The notes beneath the pieces were generated by a model that searched no databases, was not told the DNA's origin, and was given only the letters and a program-made list of their open reading frames with translations. Shown here one piece after another: positions 22,431 to 42,273 of a DNA stretch of 64,000 bases. Numbering within the stretch: position 1 is the stretch's first letter; each line of letters opens with the position of its first letter. The position numbers and the translations under genes were made by a program. This DNA is from an uncultured Candidatus Binatia bacterium (GTDB lineage: Bacteria > Desulfobacterota > Binatia > UBA9968 > CAXXLF01). Location of the stretch: positions 4,288,001-4,352,000 of the forward strand of contig OZ244621.1 of NCBI GenBank assembly GCA_965218425.1, written 5' to 3'.

Positions 22431-23390
22431 CTATTGCCAATAGGCAAATGCGCAGGCGCAACCTGTGCCGGCCCGGGAGCGGTAGCATGGCTCATAGGCC
22501 ACCAGATTCATCGAAGCTTCACTTTCGTGAACCGCCCCCGCAGTCACGATCCAGTTGCGAATTTCGCCGTTACCAAAGTTGAAGCGATTCTCTGGAAGGC
22601 GGGTGAGTCGTACCTCGTCCTTCTCCTGCATGACCGAGAGCACCTCATGATCCAGCTCTTCATCGATAACCATATGGCTGAGCCCCCCTGTCCCAATGAC
22701 TGCCACTGTTTTCTCACTGTCCCAGGATTCGATGGCCCGACGCAGTCCCTTGCCCAAACTATAACACCGGCTGAGTGTGGGTTGGTTAGGGGCGTAGTAG
22801 GTATTCAAGAAAATTGGCACATGGGGTGGAACTCTGTTTTCCATGATGCGGGCATAAACAAAGTCAAACGCGTGACCTATGGAGCGACCCTCGGGTATTA
22901 CCCGCGTGTGGGACACGTCGAACGACTCAGCGTTTAAAGACGCAATAATATGCCGGCCTAAGTCCGGCTCACCTTGCCAAACGTTAGGACTTTTTTGAGC
23001 AGGCCGGCCACGGCTGCCGTGGGGAAAATGGCGCAACTCCTTACCCCAAAACACATCCACAGCCGGAATGTGATCCTCGGGCATGAAAACTTCGTGGGTG
23101 TCATCCCCCACAATCACCACAACATCCGGCGACACATGCTTCAGTGTCTCACTGAGGGTTGCAATGGCTTTCTGACAAACGTTGTGCCGTCGGTCAAATA
23201 CCTCTTGCTTGAGCTCTTTGTCTATCCAGGATTCTCGTTCTCGGACCATCGCATCGAGGTCCAAGTTCATGGGCATGCCTCCTCCAGTGGGACCCCGCAT
23301 ATCTCGCTCGCCAGATGCAGTCCACCGGTCAGAAGAGCCATTGAGACCTGGCGCATGAGAGGTCGCCATGCCTAGCACCATTTTCGCCAT
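22431..23390 (-). CDS. LigB-family extradiol dioxygenase, DesZ/LigZ-like
   Basis: LGMATSH, GDDTHE, GHAF, TGGLSH, GEIRNW, YRSRAGTG. Confidence 0.9.
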   Translation of the reverse strand: MAKMVLGMATSHAPGLNGSSDRWTASGERDMRGPTGGGMPMNLDLDAMVRERESWIDKELKQEVFDRRHNVCQKAIATLSETLKHVSPDVVVIVGDDTHEVFMPEDHIPAVDVFWGKELRHFPHGSRGRPAQKSPNVWQGEPDLGRHIIASLNAESFDVSHTRVIPEGRSIGHAFDFVYARIMENRVPPHVPIFLNTYYAPNQPTLSRCYSLGKGLRRAIESWDSEKTVAVIGTGGLSHMVIDEELDHEVLSVMQEKDEVRLTRLPENRFNFGNGEIRNWIVTAGAVHESEASMNLVAYEPCYRSRAGTGCACAFAYWQ

Positions 23391-23541
23391 GTTTTCCTCC
23401 TTTGGTCGCCTTTCCCGTCACCGGCTCGGGCAGGCGACAGCCCATTTTATCTCTTGCATCTTCTCCAGGCGTAAAGTTGCCGAAATCAAAATTTCCGCGT
23501 TGTACATAGAATTCAGAGCTCCCTTTTTTTAATAACCGCCA

Positions 23542-23994
23542 TCAATCACCAAGCGCCAGAGCCACTACCGCCTGGATGCGCTCGTGGCGAAGCCCGGCTG
23601 GGGCGACGTTCAGCACGTGGTAGGTGGGTCGCCGCGCTGGGTCAGGGAAGTTCTTAGCTATCTGGTTGTGTGCCGTAGGCCGGTAAGCGTCATCCATCAC
23701 ATAAAGGGTGAGACAGATGATATCCGACAGAGTCCCTCCGGCGGCTTCCGCAAATTGGCGGATGTGGCGGAATAGAACTTCCGCCTCCTCCTCCACTCGC
23801 TCAGGCAAGCGACGCTTCGGATCGCGCGCATTCTCGTCGTGGCCGGACATCATTGAAGAGAATGCAAGGCTACCTTTTGCCTGACGCTTCACCTTCATTG
23901 CGGGTGGGATCACACCACGGGCGATCTGGCCGGTACTTTCCGCCGCTCCCTCGGGACGCCGGACAAACTCTACAAGCTCACGAACATTGCCCAT
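23542..23994 (-). CDS. RidA/YjgF-family protein, single domain, lacking the catalytic Arg
   Basis: LF.HI..F.EAAGGTLSDI..LT.YV, FPDPARRPTYH. Confidence 0.75.
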   Translation of the reverse strand: MGNVRELVEFVRRPEGAAESTGQIARGVIPPAMKVKRQAKGSLAFSSMMSGHDENARDPKRRLPERVEEEAEVLFRHIRQFAEAAGGTLSDIICLTLYVMDDAYRPTAHNQIAKNFPDPARRPTYHVLNVAPAGLRHERIQAVVALALGD

Positions 23995-24030
23995 TTAATT
24001 AGACCTCCGTGTTAAATTTCCAACAGCTCA

Positions 24031-24813
24031 TTAATAGCGGCGGACCTCTCGCACCGCCTTGATATACTCCTCTGCACCGTCGTACATAACTTTCGCAAGG
24101 TTAAGACCATGGCGAGGTGGCCCATCCAGGGTTGCCACGCTGTAGGTGAAGCCGGTAATTCGCCCATCTGCCTCGGGCCCGGCGTGGGACGACCCGCCAA
24201 GCACGGGAATGGCGACCTTGCGAGATACCTCGGCGTAGATCTCCGGGTTCTTCACATGCGTGAGGTCGAGCAAGGAAGCACCAATCTCCTCCAGCAGTCT
24301 GGCCTCCTCGAGGATGCGGTTGTGCTCGCGGTTAGCGTCTGCTTCGGAAACATTGTCGAAACTGCCGATCTTTAACGTCGACTGAGGTGAGAAACCGAAC
24401 TGCGTCCAGACGGGGATGCCGGTCTTGACGATGGCTCGCACCGAGTCAATGTTAGCCACGGCGTTGTCGATTTTGACCATCTCGGCGTGACCCTCCTTGA
24501 CCAACCGGATTGCGGCACGCACCGCTGCATCCGGCCCCTCTTGGGGCGGTCCAAACGGCATGTCGCAATTCACTAGGGCCCGCTTCGCGCCACGGCTAAC
24601 GGCACCACAAGCCAATACCATGAGGTCAACGGTGGTTTCGTGGTGAGTTAGCTGGCCAAAGCGGTTGCGGCCGATGCTATCGCCTACAGTCAGGATATCG
24701 ATGCCGACCCGGTCGAGGATCTGGGCTTGCTGAAAGTCGTATGTAATGGCCGCCGCGATCTTCACTCCGTCGCGCTTCATCCGCTGAATATCAGCAACAT
24801 TAAGCTTTGCCAT
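24031..24813 (-). CDS. PanB-fold protein, divergent active site (subtype 2)
   Basis: ITYDF, VGDSIGRN, CDMPF, MVKIDN, VWTQFG, LDLTHV. Confidence 0.85.
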   Translation of the reverse strand: MAKLNVADIQRMKRDGVKIAAAITYDFQQAQILDRVGIDILTVGDSIGRNRFGQLTHHETTVDLMVLACGAVSRGAKRALVNCDMPFGPPQEGPDAAVRAAIRLVKEGHAEMVKIDNAVANIDSVRAIVKTGIPVWTQFGFSPQSTLKIGSFDNVSEADANREHNRILEEARLLEEIGASLLDLTHVKNPEIYAEVSRKVAIPVLGGSSHAGPEADGRITGFTYSVATLDGPPRHGLNLAKVMYDGAEEYIKAVREVRRY

Positions 24814-24855: not shown

Positions 24856-26079
24856 CTACACCGACGTTGCCCAAAATCGGCGCCAATCCACAGACTGTGG
24901 AACCAAATCGGACCGTACAACCAGTTCGTTCAATGACGAAAACGATGCCTCATCGGTGAGCGGGGGAGGCTTACCTTCCTGAATTTCGAGTATAGCGTTA
25001 AGCAGCTTTTTGCGAGTGACAATGATGGCTTTGTCGCAATAGCCCAAGTGTTCCTCCGTCCGATCTTGAATAGCACCCTCACCCTCAGTCGCCCACAAAT
25101 CCTGTGCCTGGAACGAAGGTCCCATCCCGGTAAATGTCTTAGTTTTCATCTCCTCTGGATCCTGGAGATACCGATTGTGCTTTCCTCGATCCAACCGGTA
25201 AAACGCATCCACAGGGTTTCGGTCCCAAGCCACAGCAGCCTTGTCCAAGGGCGCGCTCCGGCGAAACATAAGAACATACTTCCAGTGATGTTCATCATCA
25301 ACCGGCACATGCCAATTTACCGTGTATCCATCCGCCAAACCGGTCCCAATGGCACAGAGACTTGGAAAAACAAAATAGGTTATCCGAACATAATGCTTGT
25401 CCGGAGGTACTGCCCGTACCGAAAAAACACGGACACCAAAAGGGGTTTCTTCCGCCTCGACAATGGCAGAGGGATCGCCCCAAATATATCTGATATATTT
25501 GGGAGTCGATTCGGACTCTAATTGGCGATGAAGATAGGTGCTATGGACGGGGTCGATATTGCCTTCGGCAGCCTGCAAATAATTACAGTCATGCCATATC
25601 TTGCTACTGAATCGATATTCTTCCTTAGCTTCCAGAAACTCAAAGGGAGGTATGGGCGGTGGCTGACCCAGACCCATATAGGTCAGGATTAACCCGCCAA
25701 CTTCTCTGCAGGGAAAACTTTTTTGTCTGATTTTGTCTTGGAAGCGGCTCCCCTCTGGTTCACCTGGCTGTTCGAGACACCTGCCGTTCGTGTCGTAGAG
25801 CCACCCGTGATAAAGGCACCGTAAGCCGCCGTTCTCAATTCGCCCGTAGCTCAAATCTGCGCCCCTGTGCGCACAGTGGATCCCAAGAAGCCCGATCCGA
25901 TTACGGTCATCGCGAAAAAGAGCTAGATCTTCCCCAAGAAGCCGGACGGCCAATGGCCGACCTCCCGATGGCAACTCGTCCGCTAACGCGACGGGTTGCC
26001 AATACCGTCGCATGAATTCGCCAGCAGGAGTACCCGGACCTACGCGTGTAACGAGGTCGTTGTCGTGACGGCTAAGCAT
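24856..26079 (-). CDS. Rieske oxygenase large subunit (phthalate 4,5-dioxygenase-like)
   Basis: CAH...CLYH, EGNIDPVH...LH, AQD. Confidence 0.9.
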   Translation of the reverse strand: MLSRHDNDLVTRVGPGTPAGEFMRRYWQPVALADELPSGGRPLAVRLLGEDLALFRDDRNRIGLLGIHCAHRGADLSYGRIENGGLRCLYHGWLYDTNGRCLEQPGEPEGSRFQDKIRQKSFPCREVGGLILTYMGLGQPPPIPPFEFLEAKEEYRFSSKIWHDCNYLQAAEGNIDPVHSTYLHRQLESESTPKYIRYIWGDPSAIVEAEETPFGVRVFSVRAVPPDKHYVRITYFVFPSLCAIGTGLADGYTVNWHVPVDDEHHWKYVLMFRRSAPLDKAAVAWDRNPVDAFYRLDRGKHNRYLQDPEEMKTKTFTGMGPSFQAQDLWATEGEGAIQDRTEEHLGYCDKAIIVTRKKLLNAILEIQEGKPPPLTDEASFSSLNELVVRSDLVPQSVDWRRFWATSV

Positions 26080-26517: not shown

Positions 26518-27519
26518 CTAGTTTGGCGCCGCTATGGGTCTATCTAACTTAAAGAGCTTCCTGGCATTATCCTCGAAAATCTTCCGCCGATCCTGCTCCG
26601 TCAACCACTCAATTTCCTCGATAACGGGTTTTAAATCGTCCATCTGGCGGCCAGTATCGGGATGAGTTTTACTACCCGTGCCCGGATTCTCCGTCGAAAA
26701 CATGCACCGGTCAGGTCCCATCACTTTGAACAAGAGTTCCAACGACTCTTTGGTATAAATGCAAGTATCGTAATGCAGTTTTTTGACCGCGTCCTCAAAA
26801 CGTTCCGGAGAACGCCCATATCTCGATGCCATAAACCGACCCATTTGATAAGGGATAGCTCCCCCTCCATGGGAAATAATTAGCTTGAGGCTTGGAAAAT
26901 CTTTAAAAACCTGTGAGTCCAGCAAGGACATGATCGCGATACTCTCCTCAGTAATGAAGTGTAAACTGTAACTCATACGGCTGGACTGGCAACTGGATGA
27001 GTGCACCAATGCAGGGATGTCCAATTCCACCAGCTTCTCGTAGAGCGGGTACCAGAACTCATCTCCCATAGCTGGAGTCTCCTCACCACCCATTTCCCCG
27101 GGGTCCGGGTTGATAAGGCAACCGATAAAGCCAAACTCCTTGACGCAGCGCTCCAGCTCCTCGAAGCAGTTTTTTGGACTTTCCCCGGGGGACTGCGGCA
27201 AGCCACAAACACCCCTAAACTTGTCGGGGTGCAATTTTACCTGCCTGGCAATGATATTGTTGGTTTCTTCCATCCACCACCGTACGAGCTTCTCAGGTTT
27301 GGCATAGTGCATCATCAGGTTCGGCCGAGGCGATATGAATTGCATGTCGGTTCCAGCCTCATGAATACGACTCAGGTGGCGCTGAAGGGCCGATTCCAAC
27401 TCCTCGTCGCTCGCGTTCACACCACCACGTCCGTGATTCCCGCGGTGACCAAGCAACATAGACCGGTAGTAGTGCCACTTGCGTGGTGCGCTGACATGAG
27501 CATGAATATCGATAACCAT
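26518..27519 (-). CDS. ligY: Amidohydrolase-fold meta-cleavage-product C-C hydrolase, LigY-like
   Basis: IDIHAHVSAP...HRGNHGRGG...TDMQFISPRP...YSLHFI.EE...SHGGGAIPYQMGRF...TENPG.GS follows the recalled Sphingobium LigY pattern more closely than LigJ. Start at ATG 27519 (GAGGAGG SD). Confidence 0.75.
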   Translation of the reverse strand: MVIDIHAHVSAPRKWHYYRSMLLGHRGNHGRGGVNASDEELESALQRHLSRIHEAGTDMQFISPRPNLMMHYAKPEKLVRWWMEETNNIIARQVKLHPDKFRGVCGLPQSPGESPKNCFEELERCVKEFGFIGCLINPDPGEMGGEETPAMGDEFWYPLYEKLVELDIPALVHSSSCQSSRMSYSLHFITEESIAIMSLLDSQVFKDFPSLKLIISHGGGAIPYQMGRFMASRYGRSPERFEDAVKKLHYDTCIYTKESLELLFKVMGPDRCMFSTENPGTGSKTHPDTGRQMDDLKPVIEEIEWLTEQDRRKIFEDNARKLFKLDRPIAAPN

Positions 27520-27715
27520 TGAAATCAACCTCCTCGTTATTTCGATTTCTACCGGAACTCACTCAGTGGTTGCATGTTAGAGATATAGGTTATTCGTCAA
27601 AGAACATGAAAGTGTAAAAAGTGTTGTCCTCCCCTGCATGTGGTTTTAGTTGGCACAGTCCGCCGAAGAGACTTGTGGCAGTGGGTGATCGATTGGGCTG
27701 TTATCGATTGTTTCG

Positions 27716-28138
27716 TCATGGACTCTTGACGCAGGCAACGACCACGGCGGCAAACCGCCCCTCTTTCAAACCAACAGGCGCGGCATTGAATACGTGGGAT
27801 GACGGCCGGCTGTCGGGGTCCGCGAAGATCCGGTGGAATTCCTTCCGAACTAGCGCGGAGTGGGCTATCTCATCCGCCACATAGAAGGTGAGGTCGATGA
27901 TTTCTTTTACGGACCCGCCTGCCGCTTTCATGAAGCCTGTGATATGGCGAAAGAGCATGGCTACCTCGCCCTCAGCAGACGCAGGATAACTGGATGTGAA
28001 CTCGTCACGACCAGCCAGTAGAGATGAATGAACCAGTTGCCCTTGACCCCGCCACGGAATCTTGACCCCTGACGGAACTTCTAACCCAATATTCGCTACT
28101 CCCGCACGGTAGTCGATCACGCGTCTTTCGCTTGCCAT
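27716..28138 (-). CDS. RidA/YjgF-family protein, single domain, lacking the catalytic Arg
   Basis: LFRHI..FMKAAGGSV..I..LTFYV, FADPDSRPSSH. Confidence 0.72.
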   Translation of the reverse strand: MASERRVIDYRAGVANIGLEVPSGVKIPWRGQGQLVHSSLLAGRDEFTSSYPASAEGEVAMLFRHITGFMKAAGGSVKEIIDLTFYVADEIAHSALVRKEFHRIFADPDSRPSSHVFNAAPVGLKEGRFAAVVVACVKSP

Positions 28139-28205: not shown

Positions 28206-28961
28206 CTACAGAACCGCCATGGCCACTACAGAGAAAAACTCGCCAGCGTGCAGTGCCTGTGGTCGCACGTACGTCTGGCGGGCCGGCAGGTTCATGACGT
28301 CAGGCCACAGCCGGGCCCAGGGCTCATCGAATGCCTTGCGACAGCTCTCGGAGTGAAGCAAACCCGACACGTTGAGGATGCTATCCAGCGTACCGTCGTG
28401 GGCTTCCACCCATTTTCTGATCTGGTCGAACATGGTCGTGGACTGTTCGAAAGGACTGGTTGATAGGGCCCCGGTTGCAGGATCACGGCCTGTGAAGGTC
28501 GGAGAGTATATTAGCCTTCCTTTGGCGTCTCCAGACGCCGCGCGACCCGGTAACACAGCCATCGCGGTTGCAGCCATGGGCCAGTGACGGTGAACACCCT
28601 CTGGATAGACGTTGAGGATACGACAGGCTGGTCGATTGCTAGGGTCTTGGAACATCGCCTGCCATTGTCGCCGAATCGATGATGTTACATTGCCATCGGT
28701 ATCATCTCGGTTGAGGTAGATGGCGAAGTCGATAATATGGTCGACTGTTCCACCGGCTGCCTCAACGTTGCGGCGTATGCGTCGAAAGAGCCACTCGGCG
28801 TCCTCTTCTAGAGTACCCTCGCCAACCTTTGTTGGCCGCGCGTTACTGGTGGGTCCGCATAGCGAAGTATACAGGAGGTCGCCGACGATGGTTAACTCCG
28901 GCACTGGGGACCCAGGACGCCGGTGACCCTCTACCTCCAGGACCTCTCTCATTACGGTCAT
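28206..28961 (-). CDS. RidA/YjgF-family protein, tandem two-domain
   Basis: Two repeats: EAAGGTVDHI...FQDPSNRPACR and EAHDGTLDSI...WPDVMNLPARQ. Confidence 0.75.
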   Translation of the reverse strand: MTVMREVLEVEGHRRPGSPVPELTIVGDLLYTSLCGPTSNARPTKVGEGTLEEDAEWLFRRIRRNVEAAGGTVDHIIDFAIYLNRDDTDGNVTSSIRRQWQAMFQDPSNRPACRILNVYPEGVHRHWPMAATAMAVLPGRAASGDAKGRLIYSPTFTGRDPATGALSTSPFEQSTTMFDQIRKWVEAHDGTLDSILNVSGLLHSESCRKAFDEPWARLWPDVMNLPARQTYVRPQALHAGEFFSVVAMAVL

Positions 28962-28976: not shown

Positions 28977-30140
28977 CTAGCGAGTGCGACGTACCAGACG
29001 TAAGCCTTCTGACAGGTTGGTGTCGATGATCTCATGATCTGGGTCTCTCACCACCGCCAGCGGATCAAGCCCTTGTCTGACCTTCTCGATGTTATCTTTT
29101 AACATATGACGGTACAGTACGATGCCACGATCAGAACCGCCCAAATGCTCCGCTGTTCGGTTCGAGATAGGCCCCTGGGTCTCCCACGCCATATGATCTT
29201 GTGCAGCAAAAACCCTGGATTCGGGTGGTAACTTGAACCGCGTATTGGGGTGTATCCCATACGGGGGATCTTTGTATGCAGGATTATACGTGACCGCCGA
29301 CTCTTGGTTCTCCGTCAATTCGCGGTCATCTGATGGAATAAATTGAACACGAAAGATCATCGTTTGGGTATCATCCACCGGCACTCTTATCTGGGTCCCA
29401 TCACCTTGCCTAAGAACGTTGGGAAAGATCAGAGGATGATCGTCACCGGCACCAGCACCCGTACCCTCCTTCCACACACGGCGCTTCATAATTCCGTACG
29501 GGACCAGATAGAATTCGAATTCCTCCACCAACTCAGTGAGGCCTACCGTCGTATCCCTCGCTTTTCCCCTGGTTCGAATTAACTCTTGGTGCAGTACAGA
29601 TGAGTGGGCAGGATCTACAGAGTTTTCCATGGCCTGGAGCCAGTTACAGTCCAGATGGGGATCCACTTGGATGTGGCGGTGGCCATCAGATCGGGCCCAA
29701 ACATCGTATTTAGGAATCACCGGCGCAGGCAGTGGACCCATGTAGGCCCAATACAGCCCGATATGCTTTTTCACTGGATAGGCCTTTTGTCGAACCGAAT
29801 CCATAATCCCCGTGTTTCGCTCTGCCGGTGTCGCAATGATTTTTCCCTCTGTATCATACAGCCATCCGTGGTACGCACATGCGAGCCCCCGCTCCTCAAC
29901 TCGCCCGTACAGCAGGGACGCGCCTCGATGTGCACAGTGCTCAGCGAGCAAGCCGACACGTCCGCGCTTGTCCCGGAAAAGCACCAGGTCTTCTCCAAGC
30001 ACCCGGACGAACCTCGTCGGATGCTCTTCATTCAACTCTTGTGCAACAGCAATGGGATGCCAGTAACGGCGCAGGAGCTCTCCCGCAGGTGTGCCCGGGC
30101 CGATCTGGGTTAACAATTCGTTTTCTTCTCTTGTCAACAT
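28977..30140 (-). CDS. Rieske oxygenase large subunit (LigXa-like subtype)
   Basis: CAH...CAYH, QAMENSVDPAH...LH, AQDHMAWETQG. Confidence 0.9.
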   Translation of the reverse strand: MLTREENELLTQIGPGTPAGELLRRYWHPIAVAQELNEEHPTRFVRVLGEDLVLFRDKRGRVGLLAEHCAHRGASLLYGRVEERGLACAYHGWLYDTEGKIIATPAERNTGIMDSVRQKAYPVKKHIGLYWAYMGPLPAPVIPKYDVWARSDGHRHIQVDPHLDCNWLQAMENSVDPAHSSVLHQELIRTRGKARDTTVGLTELVEEFEFYLVPYGIMKRRVWKEGTGAGAGDDHPLIFPNVLRQGDGTQIRVPVDDTQTMIFRVQFIPSDDRELTENQESAVTYNPAYKDPPYGIHPNTRFKLPPESRVFAAQDHMAWETQGPISNRTAEHLGGSDRGIVLYRHMLKDNIEKVRQGLDPLAVVRDPDHEIIDTNLSEGLRLVRRTR

Positions 30141-32471: not shown

Positions 32472-32583
32472 GACTATCTCCTCCTTGCCGTCTTCCCTCC
32501 TGTTCTTTGGAGGGGCCGAAACCCTCGGAAGGTGCTTGTCAGCAGCTTGCACACAGAATGAGTGTGACGTCCGTCATCACCCA

Positions 32584-33676: not shown

Positions 33677-34624
33677 CTACAAATATCCCTGCTCACGCCA
33701 GAATGCTGCAGCGGCGGGGTGGAGCGGGGCACAGAGCGGGGTATCCGGCCCATCCTTGCACATCCGGTGGAGTGGGAGCATGGGACCACCCTCCCAGGGA
33801 ATGCGGTCCTTGCGCGCTTCCAGCGCTTGGCAGAACTGGCGGACAAGGTCGTCAGGCGTGTCAACATGAGTGTAGATGGGCCAGCCGCTAAAGTCGGGGG
33901 AAAGTACGTCCTCGTCAAGCTGGTGGAACTGGGCCTTGGTGATGGGCGAGCAGCGCCAGCCAATCACTTCAAGTCGCTGGGCCAACGGCGGATCCACAGG
34001 CAGCAGGCGCATTCCCGCGTCCAGTGCCTTTCCTACCCAGATGTGGACGGCTTCCTCGAAGTACGCGTCAAACTCGCCACGTTGGAGCGCTTCGACATCG
34101 ATTGCCAAGCCCCGGCGAGGCAAGATCTTACCACCCCAAGAGACAAATTCATCTAAGGAAAACCCGAGGAGCTTGAACACTTCATTGGCGACCATGTAGT
34201 CGGCATGATCGGTTCGTTCGCGCATGGAGATGCGCAGGGGGTAGCGCTTGGCACCAATGTCGGCCAGGGAGGTGATGCCAGTGCTCTCGTGTACGGCCAT
34301 ACCGAACTGGTCCAGCGACGGAATCGTTGTGATCACCCGCAGTGGCATGGGTTCCTTATAGGGGCCCGTTCCTTGTACGGCCATCCCCAGTGGCTCGGCC
34401 GGATTGACCATAGCCAACTGTACCTCTTTGCGCAGCACATCATCGAAGGAATCCGGAGCATCACTGGCAAACAGGCAGTATTGCCAGGGATTGCTGGAGC
34501 CCTGCTTGCGCATCTGCAATAGGGTCTGCGTGGCCGGCCATTTCCGGTCCCACATCAACTCGGATGCCATCTCCAACAGTAGGATCGGACGGATCTGATC
34601 GGCGCGCACATGCCTAGTTTCCAT
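33677..34624 (-). CDS. TAXI-like PBP2-fold protein without a signal peptide
   Basis: G.GPYKEPMPLRVITTIPS.D...AV....GITSLADI...RYPLRIS, DFSGWPIYTH, PLHPAA..FW.E.GY. Polar N-terminus. Confidence 0.65.
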   Translation of the reverse strand: METRHVRADQIRPILLLEMASELMWDRKWPATQTLLQMRKQGSSNPWQYCLFASDAPDSFDDVLRKEVQLAMVNPAEPLGMAVQGTGPYKEPMPLRVITTIPSLDQFGMAVHESTGITSLADIGAKRYPLRISMRERTDHADYMVANEVFKLLGFSLDEFVSWGGKILPRRGLAIDVEALQRGEFDAYFEEAVHIWVGKALDAGMRLLPVDPPLAQRLEVIGWRCSPITKAQFHQLDEDVLSPDFSGWPIYTHVDTPDDLVRQFCQALEARKDRIPWEGGPMLPLHRMCKDGPDTPLCAPLHPAAAAFWREQGYL

Positions 34625-34680: not shown

Positions 34681-35124
34681 TTATCCGGACACACGCGCAA
34701 CCACAACCGCCTCAACTCGTTCTCCACGCAGGCCCAAGGGAGCTACGTTAAGAAAATGGTAAGGGGGCTGGCGCATTGCGTCAGGAAAAAGTTGTCCCCA
34801 CTCTTTTAATACCGTGGCACGATAGACATCGTCCATAACATAAAACGTCACGTTGACCAGATCATTAGCGGTTCCCCCTGCAGCCTCCAAGAAGCCGCGA
34901 ATTCGTCGAAACAAAATTTTTAATTCTCGTTCGGGCTCAGCAGGAAGTTCATGGACGGGAGACTCATCATCATGCCCCGACAGCATCGATGAAAAGACGA
35001 ATGCATCTTTGCCGGACCGAAGCACTTTTATCCCGGGTGGTATCACCCCCTTTAGTATTTGCCCCCGGTCCGGAGCATTTGGATGCCGCGGTATGTAGTC
35101 GACCTTCTCCAGTCTATTTGCCAT
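34681..35124 (-). CDS. RidA/YjgF-family protein, single domain, lacking the catalytic Arg
   Basis: Start moved to ATG 35124 (GGGAGG SD). Close paralog of 23542 (GVIPP..KV.R...FSSM.SGHD). FPDAMRQPPYH. Confidence 0.75.
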   Translation of the reverse strand: MANRLEKVDYIPRHPNAPDRGQILKGVIPPGIKVLRSGKDAFVFSSMLSGHDDESPVHELPAEPERELKILFRRIRGFLEAAGGTANDLVNVTFYVMDDVYRATVLKEWGQLFPDAMRQPPYHFLNVAPLGLRGERVEAVVVARVSG

Positions 35125-35304
35125 AAAGCCTCCCTTGCAGTTGCTTGATCTAGAGTAAACCCCGTACCACGGAATTATTCCCGTGGCTTTGGGGCGTTTC
35201 CCTTTGGGGAAGTTCGGAACACTCATCTCCAGAATCACGTCCGCGGCGTTCTGTGGTTCGGGCTGAATCTTCGCGGGACAAGTCAATCAAATGCATGATA
35301 CGCC

Positions 35305-36771
35305 TTACCGGTGGGCTTGGACATGAGCAAAGAGTGTTTTCCATTTTTTTTCGATATCCCTGCGCAACTCTCGGCTATTCATATTAACTTCAGGGAACTT
35401 GTCTTTCCACTCGTAAGGTCGGCAGGCGTTAATTACGAGGTTGTGCGCGTTGTATTTTTCCCTACCTTTCATGGATGGATCCGATGCCTGGCCAGGTGGT
35501 ATCCTTGGGTCCAATTGCCACACTGCCGTACCCGGAACGATGGTAACCCCCGATTCTGGGATGCAGCGGCTGGCAATGGCCCAGAGCACCTCTTCTGTGT
35601 ACAGCAGATCAATGTCTTCATCCACCAGCACCCAAATATGATTTCCACTATGTTGATCTCCCCCAGGCTCTAATTGGCGGATCACGTCTTCAACGTGTCC
35701 TGCGTACATTTGCTTCACCTTTACCACCCGAAAACCTGGGGCAACCACGGTAACCACTTCTTGAACGCCCTGAATACCGGCTTGTTCAAGTCGTCTTCGC
35801 ACACGAAAATCAATGTTCGTGAGCTCTTTATAAGCTCGAATGTGCCGAATAGGAGGAGAGCCGAAGATTATACAGCCCTCCCGGTAGTGAATGGCTGCCA
35901 CTTCAATGACCGTTTCGAGTCTGCGACCATGTCCATAGTAGCCCGTCCACTCGCCGAAGGGACCTTCGGGTAATAATTTTTCCTCGGGCGAAGGAATAAA
36001 GCCCTCAATAGCTATCTCTGCTGTGGCAGGGATTGGGAGGCCGGTAATAGGTCCTTTGACCACTGGATACGGACTTTTGTGAAGGTAACCTGCCACTTCA
36101 AACTCGGAGACCCCATTGGGGCAGTGATAGACACTGCCTCCGGAGAGCAGTGTCAGGATGGGTTCCTGCCCTACGGAAACCACCACTGGGCATTTTTCCC
36201 CACGGCTCCAATGCTTGCGTCGGATAAAATCACCGTGCCGATTCGGTTCCATGAAGAGGCCGCAGGTATTTTTGTCGGCGATGCAAACCCGGTATGAGCC
36301 CGAGTTGACAAATCCAGTGTCAGGGTCCCGTTGAATAACGCATAGTCCCGTCCCTATGTATCGATCAATGTCTTTGTCATGCCATCTCGGGGTGGGAAAG
36401 TGAAAAAGGTCGACATCTCCACCCTTGAGAGTATTGTCGAACACAGGGCCAGAGTAAACTTCGCACATGGGTATGGGTTGAATTTCACCGATCACGCGGT
36501 TCCACTCTTCAGCCATCTCCACAAGAGGACGCTCATGATTGAGGCCTAGGGCAAGCGCCGTTCGCTCCGGTCTTGTACAGAGGTTGGCAGCCAACCCAAA
36601 ACTCTTGGGATAATCAGGGACCTCATCGAAGAGGAGTGCCGGCCCGCCTCTTTCCACCATCAATTCGGTAATAACCCCAATTTCCAGATCCCAATGAGCA
36701 CCTCGAACTCGTTCCAGCATTCCTAACTGATCGAGCTTTTTTAGGTAATCCCTTAAATCATTCCACAACAT
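35305..36771 (-). CDS. UbiD-family prFMN-dependent (de)carboxylase
   Basis: DLRDYL..L...G.L, GPALLFD, NSGSYR, EIAIEG, PEGPFGEWTGYY, VDEDID. Confidence 0.9.
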   Translation of the reverse strand: MLWNDLRDYLKKLDQLGMLERVRGAHWDLEIGVITELMVERGGPALLFDEVPDYPKSFGLAANLCTRPERTALALGLNHERPLVEMAEEWNRVIGEIQPIPMCEVYSGPVFDNTLKGGDVDLFHFPTPRWHDKDIDRYIGTGLCVIQRDPDTGFVNSGSYRVCIADKNTCGLFMEPNRHGDFIRRKHWSRGEKCPVVVSVGQEPILTLLSGGSVYHCPNGVSEFEVAGYLHKSPYPVVKGPITGLPIPATAEIAIEGFIPSPEEKLLPEGPFGEWTGYYGHGRRLETVIEVAAIHYREGCIIFGSPPIRHIRAYKELTNIDFRVRRRLEQAGIQGVQEVVTVVAPGFRVVKVKQMYAGHVEDVIRQLEPGGDQHSGNHIWVLVDEDIDLLYTEEVLWAIASRCIPESGVTIVPGTAVWQLDPRIPPGQASDPSMKGREKYNAHNLVINACRPYEWKDKFPEVNMNSRELRRDIEKKWKTLFAHVQAHR

Positions 36772-36812: not shown

Positions 36813-38012
36813 TCATTCAGGGCTCGGCACCTGGTGCGACATGAAGATTTCTTTCCTTTCCCTTGCTGACTGCATGATGGCGAGCACCACTTCCAGGGTC
36901 GCCTCTCCCCATCTCCCATCGTGGAACACTGGCCGGTCTTCAGTTACCGAACGGTACAACTCGTCGAGTTCTGCTTTACGGCTTCGGGCCGTTTTTGGCA
37001 CTGGGACTTCCCAGGTCTTCTCATCACCATAAATGATCAGACCGTCAAGGGACTGCCGAATATCACCGTGTTCACAGCTGACGATTGTGATCCCGAAATG
37101 GGAGTGGGGATAATCGTCGCTTCGGATCCGGGGATCTTCCTTTCCGCCTCCAAATCTCTTGCCTTCTTTAATGACCCATTCGTCTTCGGGGGATTTTAAA
37201 TTTCTGATAACGGCCCGTGCCGCTATATTCTGATCCGGCGTCCGTTTTGCCTCACCCATCCAGGAAGTGAACTCTGCCGTATCAAAATGGGCATAGCCAG
37301 TAAATACGACTGTGGCTGGCGTACCGTCCTCAAACTCGAGATAGCAGACCCAGGCACCTTCAGCCCTGCGCGATGCATCCCAGACACCTGTCATGGCTCT
37401 TACGCTCCGTATCATACCGCCCCCTAACAACCGAATTATATCGACGATATGGGGCCCTTGGTTATAAATGATATTGCCCCCTTTAGTGGCATCCAGCTCT
37501 TGGGGCATCCGGGGCCGATACATGAAATCCTGATAATGCCAATTGTTGATCATACACAGGCGACCAAGCTCCCCACCTTTGATGATCGTTCTCATCTTAC
37601 GGACAGGTGGATCAAAGCTATGCGTATGCCCGCACAGGAGTTTTACTCCGTTGCGTTCGCAGGCTGCGTTCATGGCTTCACATTCTTCGATTGTGAAAGC
37701 CATTGGCTTTTCTACAATCACATGCTTTTTTGCCTCTGCTGCCAGAATCACATGTTCTGCGTGGTATTGGTTTGGGGTACAAACGTAGATCGCATCGACG
37801 TTAGGGCTCTTGCACAGATCCTCCACCTTCTCATAAGCCTCACTGCTGAATTCACGTGTGAATTTTTCCCGGGCCTGAGCCCGAGGATCGGCTGCCCCAG
37901 TCAATTCCAAATGAGGGTGGGCAATGATTTGCGGCGATAGTTGCGCCGCCGCTACACCAAGGCCGGCTATGCCAAATCGAAGCGTTGGTTCCTTGCCTAA
38001 CATTCCCGCCAT
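36813..38012 (-). CDS. Gfo/Idh/MocA oxidoreductase, cis-dihydrodiol dehydrogenase-like
   Basis: GIAGLG, VEKPM, GHTHSFD. Very similar to 13361-14572. Confidence 0.9.
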   Translation of the reverse strand: MAGMLGKEPTLRFGIAGLGVAAAQLSPQIIAHPHLELTGAADPRAQAREKFTREFSSEAYEKVEDLCKSPNVDAIYVCTPNQYHAEHVILAAEAKKHVIVEKPMAFTIEECEAMNAACERNGVKLLCGHTHSFDPPVRKMRTIIKGGELGRLCMINNWHYQDFMYRPRMPQELDATKGGNIIYNQGPHIVDIIRLLGGGMIRSVRAMTGVWDASRRAEGAWVCYLEFEDGTPATVVFTGYAHFDTAEFTSWMGEAKRTPDQNIAARAVIRNLKSPEDEWVIKEGKRFGGGKEDPRIRSDDYPHSHFGITIVSCEHGDIRQSLDGLIIYGDEKTWEVPVPKTARSRKAELDELYRSVTEDRPVFHDGRWGEATLEVVLAIMQSARERKEIFMSHQVPSPE

Positions 38013-38085: not shown

Positions 38086-38814
38086 CTACATCAAAGCGGT
38101 GACGATTGCGCCGAACAAGCCCTCGTTCAGCCCAGCTGGAGCTACGTTCCAAGTTTGCCGTGCAGGAAGATTACTTCGGTCAGGGAATATTTTTTTCCAT
38201 GCCTCGTTCGTCACGCCACGGTAATCATCACTCATCAGATAGAGCATCACGTCGACGATATTGTCGACGCTCCCACCCGTGGACTCGGCCCATGTCTTGA
38301 CCTGCTGAAAAAGAGCATGGGCCTGCTCTTGCGGGTCCGCCGGAAGGGTTTTTGACCCAGGCAACCGTCCAACAAGTAATGGAGAATAAACCAGGTCTCC
38401 TCGATTTCCGGAGGGAGCGGATGGATCATCAAGGATAGCAGTGAAATGTGCCGCAAAACGCCAGTGGGTCCCGTGAGGGGAAACGTTTAGAATATGACGG
38501 GCAGGACGAACCGCGGGATCCGGAAACATCTTGAGCCATTCCTGATTGATGGCCTGACGGTCCTTGTCATCAAATACGTAGACAGCCATCGTAGCGATAT
38601 CGGCGGGAGTTCCCCCACCGGCTTCCACAAGACCTCGGATTCGTCCAAATAACAGAGCCGCGTCTTCAGAAGCATCGGCCCCTTGCTCCCTGTTGGGCCC
38701 CACTGGGCCTAGGAGCGATGAAAATATAAATTCCTCCGCCCTGATGCCTTCGGGTACCGGTGAGTGAACACGGTCTCGCCCTGGGACATGAATCGACTGT
38801 CTTTTTGGTATCAT
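38086..38814 (-). CDS. RidA/YjgF-family protein, tandem two-domain
   Basis: EAGGGTPADI...FPDPAVRPARH and ESTGGSVDNI...FPDRSNLPARQ. Confidence 0.78.
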   Translation of the reverse strand: MIPKRQSIHVPGRDRVHSPVPEGIRAEEFIFSSLLGPVGPNREQGADASEDAALLFGRIRGLVEAGGGTPADIATMAVYVFDDKDRQAINQEWLKMFPDPAVRPARHILNVSPHGTHWRFAAHFTAILDDPSAPSGNRGDLVYSPLLVGRLPGSKTLPADPQEQAHALFQQVKTWAESTGGSVDNIVDVMLYLMSDDYRGVTNEAWKKIFPDRSNLPARQTWNVAPAGLNEGLFGAIVTALM

Positions 38815-38892: not shown

Positions 38893-40125
38893 CTACTGCG
38901 ATTGACCGCCATTTTCAGTACGATTTTTTTCTTTGGAGTATTTTCGCCAGTCTTCAGAGGCAGGGATACGCGCACGCCACACCGGGATTCGGAACCTGTC
39001 CGGATAGGGTACTACACGACTCTCAGCCATTTGCCGAATAATACGAAGCATTAGGTTCCGCGCTACAACGATGGCCCGGTCGGTGGAACCCAAGTGCTCT
39101 TTAGTCCGGTCCTGGATGGGGCCCTCACCTTCGGTGGCCCAAGCGTCATGGACCTGAAACGCGCTACCCATCCCAATAAATGTTCTGAGATTCATCTCGT
39201 CCGGCTCCTGTAGATACCGATTGGCCCGGTTCCGCACCAACCGGTAGTCGGGTGTTAGGTCAGAACGTTCCGACTGCACCTTTTTCTTCTCCATGGGTTT
39301 TTCTTGTGTGAACATTATTACGTATTTCCAATGGTGGGTGTCGTCAATCGGTACATGCCAATTCACCGTATAGCCATCATCTGTGCCCGAAGGAAATGCA
39401 CACAGGTTGGGGAGTATAAAGTTGGTAGTCCTAATATAAGTTGTGCTGCTACCCGCGGTCTCTGCCCTTATAACCCGCACACCAAAGGGGGCCTCTTCCA
39501 CCTCCATGTCTATAAACCAACGCTGGCTCGCAGGTGGAGGTGGGGGTGCGTTCAGTCTTCCACCATAGGTCCTGTGGAGAAACGGTACATGGATGGGGTC
39601 TATATTTCCTTCGTTGGCCTGTTGGTAGTTACATTCTTGGTAAATTTTGCTGTTAAAGCGATAGTCGTCTGATGCTTTCAGAAATTCGAACTCTGGAGTG
39701 GGAGGGGGGTCGCCCGGCCCCAGGTAGGCCAAAACAATTCCCCCCATCTCAATGCATGGATACCAAGGATGGCGTATGGTTTTGTGAAAGGTGCTAGCTT
39801 CCGGTTCGCCAGGCTGCTCAAGACACCTGCCGCGAATATCATAGACCCAACCATGATAGAGACAGCGCAGACCGCCGTTTTCGATACGGCCATAGCTCAA
39901 ATCCGCCCCACGATGGGAGCAGTGTAATTCCAGAAGCCCCACTCGGTTGAACTCATCACGAAAAAGTACCAGGTCTTCCCCCAAAAGACGGACGGGTCGA
40001 GGACGGCTGCCAGGTGGAAGCTCTTCTGCCAATGCTACCGGCTGCCAGTACCGACGTAGAAAATGACCGCAAGGAGTACCGGGGCCAATTCTTGTCAGCA
40101 AATCATTTTCGTCTTGCGATAACAT
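38893..40125 (-). CDS. Rieske oxygenase large subunit (phthalate 4,5-dioxygenase-like)
   Basis: Start moved to ATG 40125 (GGAGG SD). CSH...CLYH, EGNIDPIH...LH, VHD. Confidence 0.9.
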   Translation of the reverse strand: MLSQDENDLLTRIGPGTPCGHFLRRYWQPVALAEELPPGSRPRPVRLLGEDLVLFRDEFNRVGLLELHCSHRGADLSYGRIENGGLRCLYHGWVYDIRGRCLEQPGEPEASTFHKTIRHPWYPCIEMGGIVLAYLGPGDPPPTPEFEFLKASDDYRFNSKIYQECNYQQANEGNIDPIHVPFLHRTYGGRLNAPPPPPASQRWFIDMEVEEAPFGVRVIRAETAGSSTTYIRTTNFILPNLCAFPSGTDDGYTVNWHVPIDDTHHWKYVIMFTQEKPMEKKKVQSERSDLTPDYRLVRNRANRYLQEPDEMNLRTFIGMGSAFQVHDAWATEGEGPIQDRTKEHLGSTDRAIVVARNLMLRIIRQMAESRVVPYPDRFRIPVWRARIPASEDWRKYSKEKNRTENGGQSQ

Positions 40126-40144
40126 CGATCCAAGCCTCCGAGCA

Positions 40145-41106
40145 TCATTGCCAGTAGGCGAATGCGCACCCACAGCCTGTTCCAGCGGGCGAGCGGTAGC
40201 ACGGTTCGTAGGCCAAGAGGTTCATGGCCATGTCGGCCTCCTCCATGGCGCCAGCCACCACAGTCCAGTTACGAATCTCGCCGGTGCCCCAGTTGAACAA
40301 CTCTTCGGGGTGGCTAACCAGTTTTTTCTCATCCTTCGCCTGCATGGCCTCCAGAACGGAGCGGTCCAGGGCTTCATCGATCACCGTATGGGATAGACCG
40401 CCGCTGCCAATTAAAGCAACAGTCTTATCGCTATCCCAGGACACTACGGCACGTTTCAAAGCTCTTCCTAAACTGTAGCATCGTTTTAAGGTTGGTTGAT
40501 TGGGGGCATAGTATGTGTTCAGAATCACAGGCACTTGGGGAGGGACCGATCCTTTCATAATTCGTCCGTAAATAAAGTCAAAGGCATGGCCGATAGAACG
40601 CCCTTGCTGTACATTGCGGCAGCTGGCGATATCGAAGCCCTCGGCATTCAAATACCCTATCACATGCCGCCCGAGAGCGGGTTCGCCATATAATTGCAGG
40701 CAATCCTCCTTTTTTGGGGTGCGAATGCGACTGGAATGGGGAACATGGGGTATCCGTTCACCCCAAAAAACTCCGATAGCGGGAATTTCGTCTTCAGGCA
40801 TGAAAATTTCGTGAGTATCGTCGCCAACAATAATAACCACCTCCGGAGCTACCTGTTTAAGCAGCTCTCCAAGTTGGTCAATGCTCTTCTGGCAGGCCTC
40901 GTGCCGGCGCTGCCACACCTCCGGTGTTAGCTCTTTTCCGATCCAGCTATCCCTCTCCCGGATCATCTGCTCGATATCGAGCTTCATGGGTATACCGCCC
41001 CCTTTGGGATTCGCCATGTCCCTCTTCCCAGCCTCAGCCCACCTGTCTACTGTCCCATTTAGGCTGGGTGCATGACTCGCACATACTCCAGGACCATATG
41101 TGCCAT
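40145..41106 (-). pseudogene. DesZ/LigZ-like extradiol dioxygenase with a 1-nt frameshift near codon 7 (pseudogene or sequencing error)
   Basis: ATG 41106 has an AGGAGG SD. Adding one G at 41088-41089 restores MAHMVLGVCASHAPSLNGTVDRW..., collinear with paralog 22431. Confidence 0.8.
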
Positions 41107-41481
41107 AGGGACCTCCTGGTTTCTGTTCAAGGTTCGTCAGTTCGCGCTGCTTGGTCTGTCACAAGGCCAACATTACAAGGTTTAGAAATGACCCTGAGTG
41201 CCTTTGGCTCAGGCAGAAGAGCTTAACAAGGGAAGTAAGTCATGAGCCACGATAAAAAAATAAAATTTTTGCTGTGGCAATCAGAGCTTATCACTTGTAC
41301 TACCGGCACTTACACATCGATCTATATGCTAGTCAATGACAACCTGTCAAGAGACCGTAATGATGAGTAAATCTGAGACCGAGCGAAGGGATGATGCCCC
41401 TGGTTGAAGATATTGCACGGAGGTAAGGTAATTTCAGGGATTGACGACAAGGCAGCCAACGAAAACCAAGCTGCCGACACC

Positions 41482-42273
41482 TTAGAAGGGACGAGCCGCA
41501 CGCACGTCATCGACATACTTTTTAGCAAGCTCAAGAACCAACTTGGCAACCTCGTCCCCGCGACCTGGAATACGCCCGCCTTGAAGAAACGTAGCCCTAT
41601 AGGTGAACCCGGAAATGCGTCCGTCCGCCTCAGGGCCCGCAGTCGACGATCCGCCCAAGACGGGAATTCGACATTTCTCCGCCACTTCGGCATAGATACT
41701 GTGATCCCTGACATGGGTCAAATCCAACATGGTTGCACCTGCCTCCTCCAGAGCTTTCGCCTCGCTGAGGATCTTTTCTCGCATTCGTTTCGCCATATCC
41801 TCTGTGGACGTGTCCAATGACCCGGCGCTCAGGGTACTCTGTGGAGAAAACCCAAACTGAGTCCAAACAGGAATTCCACCTCCGGCAATTCGTCGAACGG
41901 CATCTAAGTTACTTGCAGCATTATCCAATTTTACCATCTCCGCGTGCCCTTCCTTCACCAAGCGAATTGCCGCCCTGACAGCTGACTCGGGTCCTTCTTG
42001 CACTGGGCCAAAAGGCATATCGCAACTCGCCACGGCCCGTTTCACCCCACGGGTCACGGCGAGGCATACAATAATCATTTGCTCCACGGTCACATCGTGA
42101 TGGGTCGCCTGCCCCCACATGTTCCGCCCCACACTGTCACCCACAGTGAGGATGTCCACCCCTGCAAGGTCCATGATTTGCGCCATTTGATAATCGTAGG
42201 TGATTGCGGCGGAGATTTTTTTCTTCTCACGTTTCATTTGTTGCAAATCTGCTACCGTTAATTTCTCTGCCAT
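41482..42273 (-). CDS. PanB-fold protein, divergent active site (subtype 2)
   Basis: ITYDY, VGDSVGRN, CDMPF, MVKLDN, VWTQFG, LDLTHV. Close paralog of 24031. Confidence 0.85.
   Translation of the reverse strand: MAEKLTVADLQQMKREKKKISAAITYDYQMAQIMDLAGVDILTVGDSVGRNMWGQATHHDVTVEQMIIVCLAVTRGVKRAVASCDMPFGPVQEGPESAVRAAIRLVKEGHAEMVKLDNAASNLDAVRRIAGGGIPVWTQFGFSPQSTLSAGSLDTSTEDMAKRMREKILSEAKALEEAGATMLDLTHVRDHSIYAEVAEKCRIPVLGGSSTAGPEADGRISGFTYRATFLQGGRIPGRGDEVAKLVLELAKKYVDDVRAARPF

Follow-up and report, generated by a model that had tools for sequence, protein, structure and literature searches.

A putative catabolic island with repeated Rieske, LigB-type, PanB-like and Rid-like genes in an uncultured Binatia bacterium

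The stretch of DNA studied here (the window) comprises 64,000 nucleotides, positions 4,288,001-4,352,000, of the single contig (OZ244621.1) that forms the 4.46-Mb genome of an uncultured Candidatus Binatia bacterium. Nearly all genes from 116 to 43,748 of the window lie on the minus strand, and they include repeated sets of genes for Rieske oxygenases, LigB-type extradiol dioxygenases, proteins with the fold of ketopantoate hydroxymethyltransferase (PanB) and Rid-like proteins; genes are named here by their first coordinate (Table 1). Two of the sets, A (22431, 23542, 24031 and 24856) and B (34681, 38086, 38893, 40145 and 41482), had been described in an earlier note on this DNA, and all the genes named there were recovered in place on the minus strand, as was a third set (7312-13177) with another PanB subtype. 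An extra LigB/Rieske/Rid set (the middle set, 28206-33537) lies between A and B. From 31246 down to 21201, the array reads LigB, Rieske, double Rid, single Rid, LigY-like, Rieske, PanB-like, single Rid, LigB and bicupin. According to Pfam, the window encodes six Rieske/LigXa_C oxygenases (10645, 24856, 28977, 31299, 38893 and 56013), six LigB-type dioxygenases (7312, 12230, 22431, 30230, 32584 and 40145), four PanB-fold proteins (2488, 8523, 24031 and 41482), four GFO/IDH/MocA (GFO) dehydrogenases, six UbiD decarboxylases, three bicupins and one amidohydrolase_2 protein (26518). A DHDPS-like gene, a TctA gene and duplicated genes of an ABC transporter are also present. Five proteins are Rid-like (23542, 27716, 28206, 34681 and 38086), of which 27716 has no Pfam match and was recognised by its likeness to the other Rid-like proteins alone. 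The curated NCBIfam cut-offs were reached by no protein of A, B, the middle set or the third set, and these proteins should thus be regarded as relatives, not equivalogs, of the named enzymes. Positions 1-62 kb are best explained as a single island for the catabolism of aromatic acids of the lignin or humus type, made of repeated and reshuffled paralog sets; the confidence placed in this reading as a whole is somewhat short of even.

Profiles made from the window paralogs were searched against 12,761 open reading frames (ORFs) called in the genome, giving 93 Rieske, 72 UbiD, 71 cupin, 33 amidohydrolase_2, 26 LigB, 19 GFO, 9 Rid and 7 PanB-fold matches. It had been claimed that A and B were each other's nearest paralogs gene by gene. 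This holds for LigB 22431/40145 (64% identity), PanB-like 24031/41482 (62%), Rieske 24856/38893 (56%) and Rid 23542/34681 (50%), which are reciprocal best matches against all paralogs of the genome, with a narrow margin for the Rieske pair (next paralogs at 51-54%); it does not hold for Rid 38086, a tandem double-Rid of 242 aa, whose closest paralog is 28206 (39%) and not 23542. In trees with the other genome paralogs, the A and B Rieske sequences are sisters (support 97, FastTree), the A and B LigBs fall in one clade with a homolog from the Chloroflexota locus L004 (99), and the A and B PanB-like sequences fall within one 13-row clade (97). Together with Chloroflexota homologs, the four LigBs of A, B and the middle set make up a single clade that is separate from the remaining LigBs of the genome. 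The middle Rieske genes 28977 and 31299 were considered as true duplicates and rejected as such, not being mutual best matches genome-wide.

The sequence motifs quoted for A and B were found in both members of each pair, except that "DRW..G.RDM" has three residues between W and G instead of two. In the set B LigB (40145), a 1-nt deletion near codon 7 places the DRW stretch ahead of the first ATG of the ORF. The deletion changed CCTTGG to CCTGG after codon 6, and the ortholog in a related Binatia metagenome-assembled genome (MAG) is intact, with one more T. The frameshifted sequence recurs without gaps in contigs of runs X3 and X4, from two studies, either of which may be the source of the genome; runs X6 and X7 do not span the site and are hence uninformative on the deletion.

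The sets had also been said to match no phthalate, protocatechuate or 5,5'-dehydrodivanillate (DDVA) pathway. This statement has to be given up, as 26518 matches LigY, the Rieske proteins carry LigXa_C, and 3307 matches 4,5-dihydroxyphthalate decarboxylase. Gene 26518, beside set A, scored 378 bits over its full length against the LigY structures PDB 5VN5 and 6E6I, versus 238 bits against structures of the sister enzyme LigJ. Rieske 24856 matches structures of the phthalate-dioxygenase family (PDB 9INA, 7FHR and 7FJL, E ~1e-62), and the motif CxH...CxxH together with the HxxxxH pair is kept in all five Rieske genes checked. LigB 22431 matches Pfam PF02900, and the motifs for the Fe ligands and the catalytic His (the N-terminal SHAP His, GDDTH, GGLSH and EIRNW) are all present in it. 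This protein matches LigB and gallate dioxygenase structures weakly and has 2,478 database relatives, mainly from metagenomes and Chloroflexota MAGs. "3-O-methylgallate 3,4-dioxygenase", the name of DesZ, is a JGI automatic label on its homologs of 46-62% identity, and the DesZ/LigZ placement follows this label and is tentative; all NCBIfam matches are below cut-off. The best family matches of the LigBs in the window are of the gallate, protocatechuate and 3-O-methylgallate types.

The DDVA cluster of Sphingobium sp. SYK-6 holds ligXa, ligZ and ligY (PMC6874591, available part of the text; gene table in PMC12997858), and LigY releases 5-carboxyvanillate and 4-carboxy-2-hydroxypenta-2,4-dienoate (CHPD) (PMC6874591, available part of the text). 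With the LigY-like 26518, a LigXa-type Rieske and a DesZ/LigZ-type LigB, all three DDVA enzyme families are thus present in the window. The families of the O-demethylase, the ring-cleavage dioxygenase and the C-C hydrolase stand together as 24856, 22431 and 26518 and also as 28977, 30230 and 26518, on one strand and within 10 kb. The likeness of these neighbouring genes to the cluster is at the level of families. However, the hosts here are Binatia or Chloroflexota and not a sphingomonad, the sets are multiplied and shuffled, UbiD or dihydroxyphthalate-decarboxylase-type enzymes take the place of LigW, and PanB-like and Rid genes sit between the core genes. A further difference lies in electron transfer. 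Pfam gave no ferredoxin or reductase family among the genes of the window (LigXc/LigXd-type partners were not searched for), and PF00175, the FNR-type NAD-binding domain of phthalate dioxygenase reductase, had no match genome-wide despite about 93 Rieske matches, with a positive control in 11 of 14 genomes.

The lower pathway of protocatechuate 4,5-cleavage proceeds through LigC, LigI, LigU, LigJ and LigK in order. The island resembles it in having GFO-family dehydrogenases and a LigJ-related amidohydrolase_2 and in requiring an isomerase as well as a metal-dependent aldolase for a 4-hydroxy-2-oxo acid, but the RraA-like (LigK) and PrpF (LigU) genes lie elsewhere in the genome, and PanB-like and Rid proteins are proposed in their place. 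A more canonical region of the protocatechuate-4,5 type was seen at genome positions 49,000-65,000, with LigB, Rieske, three tandem RraA-like genes and two LigJ/LigY-like amidohydrolases. Likeness to the phthalate pathway is seen in the structural matches of the Rieske protein, in the full-length match of 3307 to 4,5-dihydroxyphthalate decarboxylase (PDB 9JP7, E 8e-37) and in Rieske-GFO-UbiD operons; on the other hand, the NCBIfam matches are all below their cut-offs and a reductase of the phthalate dioxygenase reductase type is missing here.

The PanB-like proteins are distinct from the PanB of this genome, which is encoded in a panB-panC-panD operon at genome position 2,533,558 and exceeds the NCBIfam cut-offs (405 and 358 bits). 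Against NCBIfam panB (TIGR00222, cut-off 207.55 bits), the window copies scored 137 (24031), 153 (41482), 193 (2488) and 186 (8523) bits, against 358 bits for the panB of the operon. By alignment, the six non-panB PanB-fold genes of the genome fall into two subtypes. Subtype 2 keeps Asp45, Asp84 and Lys114 as in PanB, and its 32 sequences are invariant for three changes relative to true PanBs, Glu to Asp116, His to Gln138 and Glu to Thr185, with Asp183 invariant as well. Compared with E. coli PanB (KphMT), these proteins have the PF02548 fold and the residues presumed to bind metal and 2-oxo acid in common, but differ in the Gln for His and the Thr for Glu, in scoring below the equivalog cut-offs, in standing outside any pan operon and in their aromatic catabolic context. 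E. coli PanB can work as a folate-independent, metal-dependent class II aldolase, according to the available part of PMC7610986. Since it has this activity and its natural product is a 4-hydroxy-2-oxo acid, it is chemically reasonable that 4-hydroxy-2-oxo acids from ring fission could be cleaved by a PanB-fold lyase, and we read the PanB-fold paralogs as candidate C-C lyases on ring-fission 2-oxo acids. In the open-access literature, nothing was found that joins ketopantoate hydroxymethyltransferase or PanB paralogs to extradiol or Rieske dioxygenases or to aromatic catabolism. PanB-like loci of 41-46% identity (L029-L088), which share a QFGF(S/T)PQ motif, were set aside as a different subfamily, since their neighbours are mostly unrelated (purC/purE, thiolase and peptidases, and sometimes a Rieske gene).

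The Rid-like proteins of the window form a clade of their own, apart from the canonical RidA-like gene at genome position 2,611,932, with three groups: N halves of double-Rid proteins, C halves of double-Rid proteins and single-domain proteins. Arg105 of RidA has been reported as required for imine hydrolysis (PMC4433059). It is absent in the singles 23542, 27716 and 34681, with Tyr or Ser instead, and present in three of the four double-Rid halves checked; the designation "RidA-like", in the sense of an ordinary imine deaminase, is therefore not supported for the single-domain copies. Single and double Rid genes are adjacent in three places (27716/28206 in the window, L001 and L002). A complex of 28206 and 27716 was predicted with a score of 0.88 in three runs, the best of three controls reaching 0.32; the score mark is reached by 116 of 157 solved complexes and by 2 of 215 mismatched pairs, counts that are only rough here as our own alignments were used. 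The runs agree in at least 87% of contacts, with partner pLDDT of at least 84, and the two halves of the double chain each contribute to the predicted interface, as expected of a closed ring of three domains. The double (~245 aa) and single (~140 aa) Rid proteins are thus predicted to form a 2+1 pseudo-trimer. Compared with the RidA homotrimer and AmnE, the Rid fold is common, and the neighbouring gene encodes a ring-cleavage dioxygenase of the LigB type, as it does in the 2-aminophenol pathway (PMC6742747, available part of the text). However, a tandem double chain and an arginine-less single chain, predicted as 2+1, would here take the place of a homotrimer of one ~125-aa chain or of a hexamer, and the sequence likeness of the island Rid to solved Rid proteins is weak: 23542 has five weak PDB matches (E 5e-4 to 0.01).

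Double Rid proteins are rare, with 43 clusters of relatives found. A scan with the single Rid gave 193 representatives at E<=0.001. Many of them contain two to four Rid stretches, and of 13 scanned with Pfam, 12 were confirmed to have more than one. Fusions of an RraA-like domain, of the LigK aldolase family, with Rid occur in the metagenome proteins P0162 and P0163, and an HbpS-like domain is fused to three Rid domains in others (P0296 and P0301). Chorismatases of the FkbO/Hyg5 type have three Rid-like domains in one chain. The predicted pseudo-trimer of Rid-like domains, putatively acting on a ring-derived carboxylate, would resemble them, and fused three-domain relatives of the island Rid exist; the triple-Rid relative P0289, in contrast, has no chorismatase match, and its 36 PDB matches are all single-domain Rid proteins. 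Chorismatase is listed among the activities of the Rid family (PMC4433059).

The sets were compared with loci outside this genome. The related Binatia MAG (L001 and L002) has orthologs of both sets in another gene order; at L002:11014-13872, two short opposite-strand Rieske fragments between the PanB-like and LigB genes of set B are probably remnants of a disrupted gene. In the Chloroflexota MAG G588, locus L103 is a one-strand operon of LigB (65% to set A), double Rid (52% to 38086), three Rieske genes (the first 53% to set B, the last 72% to 31299), single Rid (57% to 23542) and LigB (56% to 32584), with a further Rieske gene between the first LigB and the double Rid. Another contig of G588 (L004) has UbiD, GFO, PanB-like and LigB genes, and L104, from the Chloroflexota MAG G589, has a double Rid truncated by the end of the contig, SBP, NMT1-like, bicupin, single Rid and LigB. 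Within 17 kb, the metagenome contig L010 combines a PanB-like gene, Rid genes of both types, UbiD, LigB and six Rieske genes. Close relatives of the set A PanB-like protein come from MAGs of Chloroflexi/Chloroflexota and "Deltaproteobacteria" and from metagenomes. This genome has a fourth PanB-like set beyond the window, at position 3,955,663 (3.95 Mb) of the genome, in the order PanB-like, UbiD, LigB, GFO, Rieske, UbiD, SBP, Rieske, ..., cupin, LigB. The proposal that the families are retained together was thus borne out by both sets being orthologous in the Binatia MAG and by the LigB, Rieske and Rid subfamilies recurring in L103 and L010, but not in the form of a fixed four-gene module; the association of the gene families is flexible but real. 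Few of the genomes searched have PanB-like subtype 2 or the double Rid. For subtype 2, a search of 401 genomes of the phylum at E<=1e-60 gave this genome alone, and a search of 201 genomes of the class at E<=1e-45 gave two. Three of the 201 class genomes matched the double Rid, two of them through weak partial matches that represent canonical-type RidA genes beside LigB, as did one of 66 genomes of the class of G588. A scan of genome contigs yielded only four outside loci.

Based on the gene families, the paralogy, the synteny across two phyla, the residue changes and the predicted Rid-Rid binding observed here, a putative pathway can be outlined, all substrates and reactions of which are inferred. 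A Rieske protein of the LigXa/phthalate family would produce a catechol-type ring by O-demethylation or dihydroxylation, and a DesZ/LigZ-like LigB would open it. The LigY-like 26518, or a related amidohydrolase, would then cut or hydrate the ring-fission product; as in the SYK-6 pathway for DDVA, cleavage would yield an aromatic acid together with a 2-hydroxy-dienoate. GFO dehydrogenases, UbiD and 4,5-dihydroxyphthalate-decarboxylase-like enzymes could serve dihydrodiol and decarboxylation branches. The 2+1 Rid assembly may convert an unstable enol/dienol or enamine to a 2-oxo acid, and the PanB-like protein may form a metal-bound pyruvate-type enolate in C-C cleavage, as a class II aldolase/lyase in the role of LigK in the known pathway. 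These last two steps agree with two observations: the RraA-like and Rid fusions link Rid to the LigK aldolase family, and amidohydrolase_2 genes recur beside PanB-like genes (L002, L013, L018, L022 and L069). The general logic proposed earlier, in which ring activation and extradiol cleavage are joined with a PanB-fold C-C step, is still the best reading. We tentatively favour LigX/LigZ/LigY-type and phthalate-type catabolism with the Rid assembly and the PanB-like protein acting on the aliphatic ring-fission product, at a confidence just below an even chance. A more doubtful, though possible, form of it is a biaryl ring cleavage of LigX/LigZ/LigY type in Binatia and Chloroflexota that ends in two kinds of enzyme new to aromatic catabolism, a PanB-fold class II lyase and a split 2+1 Rid pseudo-trimer; the lyase would split a ring-fission 4-hydroxy-2-oxo acid, Rid would beforehand isomerise, hydrate or deaminate the unstable dienol, and the 2+1 Rid would be the split form of the three- and four-domain Rid fusions.

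Several observations weigh against this reading. Of 15 informative outside loci (PanB-like of at least 50% identity with at least 3 kb of flank on one side, some being near-duplicates such as L020/L026 and L021/L022), 9 have a Rieske gene within 5 kb of the PanB-like gene, 6 have LigB, 3 have Rid, 4 have cupin and 11 have at least one of Rieske and LigB, so that the four genes do not form the fixed module that had been supposed; the corresponding counts for 22 loci of lower identity are Rieske 5, LigB 1 and Rid 0. The direct neighbour of the PanB-like gene is most often a Rieske gene, 1-230 bp away in L001, L013, L016, L020, L021/L022, L026, L053, L081 and L086, and a function linked to the oxygenase would explain this adjacency no less well than one further downstream. 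In L022 a DmpG/DmpF aldolase pair lies between two PanB-like genes, and an extra aldolase is thus not obviously needed there. Likewise, three RraA-like genes and one PrpF gene occur elsewhere in this genome, so the canonical LigK and LigU types are not missing from it. The roles of the PanB residues in metal and 2-oxo-acid binding and in general-base catalysis, including Glu as the general base, are presumed here, and no paper naming Glu181 of ketopantoate hydroxymethyltransferase was found in the open-access literature. LigB 40145 is frameshifted in this genome; its N-terminal SHAP histidine lies ahead of the frameshift and is missing from the protein as read from the next ATG (41017). Set A has no double Rid, where the related Binatia MAG has one between single Rid and LigB (L001:11335-12081) in place of the 150-nt gap at 23390-23542. 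Finally, Rid homotrimers are solved structures, and the complex score may reflect likeness to them instead of binding of the two chains themselves.

The gene trees add to these points. The congruence that had been expected of them was found for A and B as sisters against the paralogs of this genome, but PanB-like and LigB are mildly incongruent when outside homologs are included. In the PanB-like tree, B groups with L003, L004 and L010 and not with A (99/95), and A and B alone as a group gave p 0.027 in the approximately unbiased (AU) test; in that of LigB, A and B fall together with two sequences from Chloroflexi (90/84), the LigB linked to the PanB-like gene of L004 being in the sister group, and the PanB topology forced on LigB was marginally rejected (p 0.043). 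The groups for both AU tests were chosen after the trees had been seen, and the tests are mild evidence only. This mild, post hoc disagreement suggests that partners were swapped between sets or that the sets were acquired separately, and it would argue, mildly, against one recent block duplication.

Among the alternatives, the one that survives best, although we consider it unlikely, is that the PanB-like protein serves the oxygenase step, taking formaldehyde released by Rieske O-demethylation onto a 2-oxo acid or via folate, i.e., PanB chemistry with a new acceptor. E. coli PanB adds 2-oxo acids to free formaldehyde, as stated in the available part of PMC7610986, and the short distance from PanB-like genes to LigXa-type Rieske genes is also seen in contigs free of LigB (L020/L026, L053 and L081/L086). 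However, GFO genes beside Rieske or LigB in the PanB-like sets 8523, 3955663 and L004 point to a dihydrodiol or hemiacetal chemistry without formaldehyde, and in L003, L004, L009 and L018 the PanB-like gene is directly beside LigB with no Rieske gene on the available contig. The Thr in place of the Glu that we take to be the general base of PanB would also hinder the abstraction of the C-H proton.

The adjacency of LigB and Rid in many loci, also with canonical-type RidA (L090, L091 and L097), could instead mean that the sets degrade amino-substituted aromatics, with LigB as an aminophenol-type dioxygenase and Rid as 2-aminomuconate-type deaminases, as in the amn pathway; the arginine kept in most of the double-Rid half-domains checked would agree with this. 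We regard it as distinctly improbable, as the single Rid copies are without the arginine, none of the five weak PDB matches of 23542 is a named 2-aminomuconate deaminase, the LigBs are closest to families acting on gallate, protocatechuate and 3-O-methylgallate, and the strong LigY-like neighbour points to a biaryl-type, oxygen-only pathway.

It could also be argued that there is no dedicated pathway and that the genes are adjacent as a by-product of an island so dense in paralogs that any gene in it would have Rieske, LigB, cupin and UbiD genes nearby. The genome is indeed rich in Rieske, UbiD, cupin and LigB matches, and 14% of it lies within 5 kb of a Rieske gene; the gene order differs between this genome and the related MAG, and the trees are mildly incongruent. 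However, only 2.35% of the genome is within 5 kb of both Rieske and LigB, yet four of the six PanB-like genes are (binomial P(>=4 of 6) = 4.4e-6, a value that overstates the case because three of the four share one island). Moreover, five of the nine Rid matches of the genome are in the window, and the same subfamilies, not merely the same families, are together again in Chloroflexota contigs, which makes a by-product less probable still. That the PanB-like genes are spare panB copies for pantothenate synthesis is hardly credible: they match PF02548 strongly and the outside copy 3955663 passes the NCBIfam cut-offs (283 and 229 bits), but a separate panB is present in its operon, the window copies are below the cut-offs with residues different from those of PanB, and the context is aromatic catabolism in two phyla.

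The core of the island is best seen as a variant of known LigX/LigZ/LigY-type and phthalate-type catabolism, and the new elements are the PanB-fold partner and the two-chain Rid assembly. Nothing was found in the open-access literature on either of these in aromatic catabolism, or on Binatia together with Rieske. Binatia and Chloroflexota are abundant uncultured soil groups whose part in the turnover of lignin and humus aromatics is poorly known, and the island shows DDVA-type and phthalate-type enzyme families in many diversified copies in both. The pipeline labels "PanB" and "RidA" obscure the context of the two helper proteins. If a PanB-fold aldolase/lyase does act on ring-fission products, it would be a new fold in the lower meta-cleavage pathway, and a common misannotation would be corrected; if the 2+1 pseudo-trimer is true, it would be a new architecture for the near-universal Rid family and a bridge to the multi-domain Rid fusions.

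Table 1. Features of the window, in order of position, with the basis of each assignment
Feature	Coordinates	Strand	Basis
Two 4,5-dihydroxyphthalate-decarboxylase-family genes (1246, 3307) around PanB-like subtype 1 (2488)	1246..4359	-	Pfam; 3307 vs PDB 9JP7
Third set: divergent LigB 7312, PanB-like subtype 1 8523, GFO 9376, Rieske 10645, LigB 12230, GFO 13361	7312..14572	-	Pfam, subtype alignment
Bicupin, recurrent set neighbour	21201..22280	-	Weak Pfam Cupin_2 match
Set A LigB-type (class III) extradiol dioxygenase, DesZ/LigZ-like subfamily	22431..23390	-	Pfam LigB 9.5e-22
Set A single-domain Rid-like, without RidA arginine	23542..23994	-	PF01042 22.4 bits vs cut-off 27.3; RP-TY-H where RidA has P-A-R
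Set A PanB-like, subtype 2, not the genome's panB	24031..24813	-	Pfam PF02548 2.9e-52
Set A Rieske oxygenase alpha subunit, phthalate-dioxygenase/LigXa family	24856..26079	-	Pfam Rieske + LigXa_C; CxH...CxxH, HxxxxH
LigY-like C-C hydrolase, amidohydrolase_2 family	26518..27528	-	378 bits to LigY structures vs 238 bits to LigJ
Single-domain Rid-like, adjoins double Rid 28206	27716..28138	-	No Pfam match; 39% to 23542; RP-SS-H in place of Arg
Tandem double-Rid	28206..28961	-	PF01042; Arg in C half alone
Rieske oxygenase, middle set	28977..30140	-	Pfam; 93% ortholog in L002
LigB-type dioxygenase, middle set	30230..31246	-	Pfam; same 10-row LigB clade as A and B
Rieske oxygenase, middle set	31299..32552	-	Pfam; 72% to a Rieske of Chloroflexota operon L103
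LigB-type dioxygenase, middle set	32584..33537	-	Pfam; 55-58% to LigBs of L010, L103, L104
TAXI/NMT1-like periplasmic-binding-fold protein, no signal peptide	33677..34624	-	Pfam NMT1_3; NCBIfam TRAP_TAXI below cut-off; N-terminus inspected
Single-domain Rid-like, closest paralog of 23542	34681..35286	-	50% to 23542; QP-PY-H in place of Arg; listed TTG start, true start probably later
UbiD-family decarboxylase	35305..36771	-	Pfam; NCBIfam below cut-offs
GFO/IDH/MocA dehydrogenase	36813..38012	-	Pfam; 70% to 13361
Set B tandem double-Rid	38086..38814	-	PF01042; Arg in both halves
Set B Rieske oxygenase	38893..40173	-	Pfam; sister of 24856 in Rieske tree, support 97
Set B LigB-type dioxygenase, frameshifted	40145..41106	-	Start ATG 41106-41104 behind AGGAGG; 1 nt missing between 41091 and 41090
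Set B PanB-like, subtype 2	41482..42273	-	Pfam PF02548 2.2e-55; 62% to 24031; groups with Chloroflexota homologs
Rieske-GFO-UbiD-UbiD operon, same island	56013..61539	+	Pfam

The bicupin 21201 has five His in its C-terminal cupin that are invariant in eight homologs. Its model (pLDDT 83) retrieved only generic bicupins in a fold search (TM ~0.5), and the auxin-binding protein was the sole match in a PDB sequence search (E 3e-4). Homologs of it adjoin LigB or PanB-like genes in L001, L020, L021/L022, L023, L025, L026, L053 and L104. Four NMT1/TAXI-like genes without a signal peptide were seen (1246-2217, 3307-4359, 33677-34624 and 44129-45106). They were considered as binding proteins of transporters, and this was dropped because of the missing signal peptide and the decarboxylase match of 3307, which means that at least some of the NMT1/TAXI-like genes are enzymes.

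A tRNA-Asn gene (42995-43070) lies directly past set B, where the long minus-strand array ends on the right, and may mark a boundary of the island; a shift of composition was not seen there. Positions 14668-20963 hold a tandem duplicated transporter block with two fused permeases of 580 aa (69% identical) and two binding proteins (58%), one of which, 16610, has no Pfam match. At 50284-51380, adjoining UbiD and bicupin genes, a thiamine-diphosphate enzyme is present as two adjacent ORFs, with the N-terminal domain at 50865-51380 and the C-terminal domain at 50284-50868.

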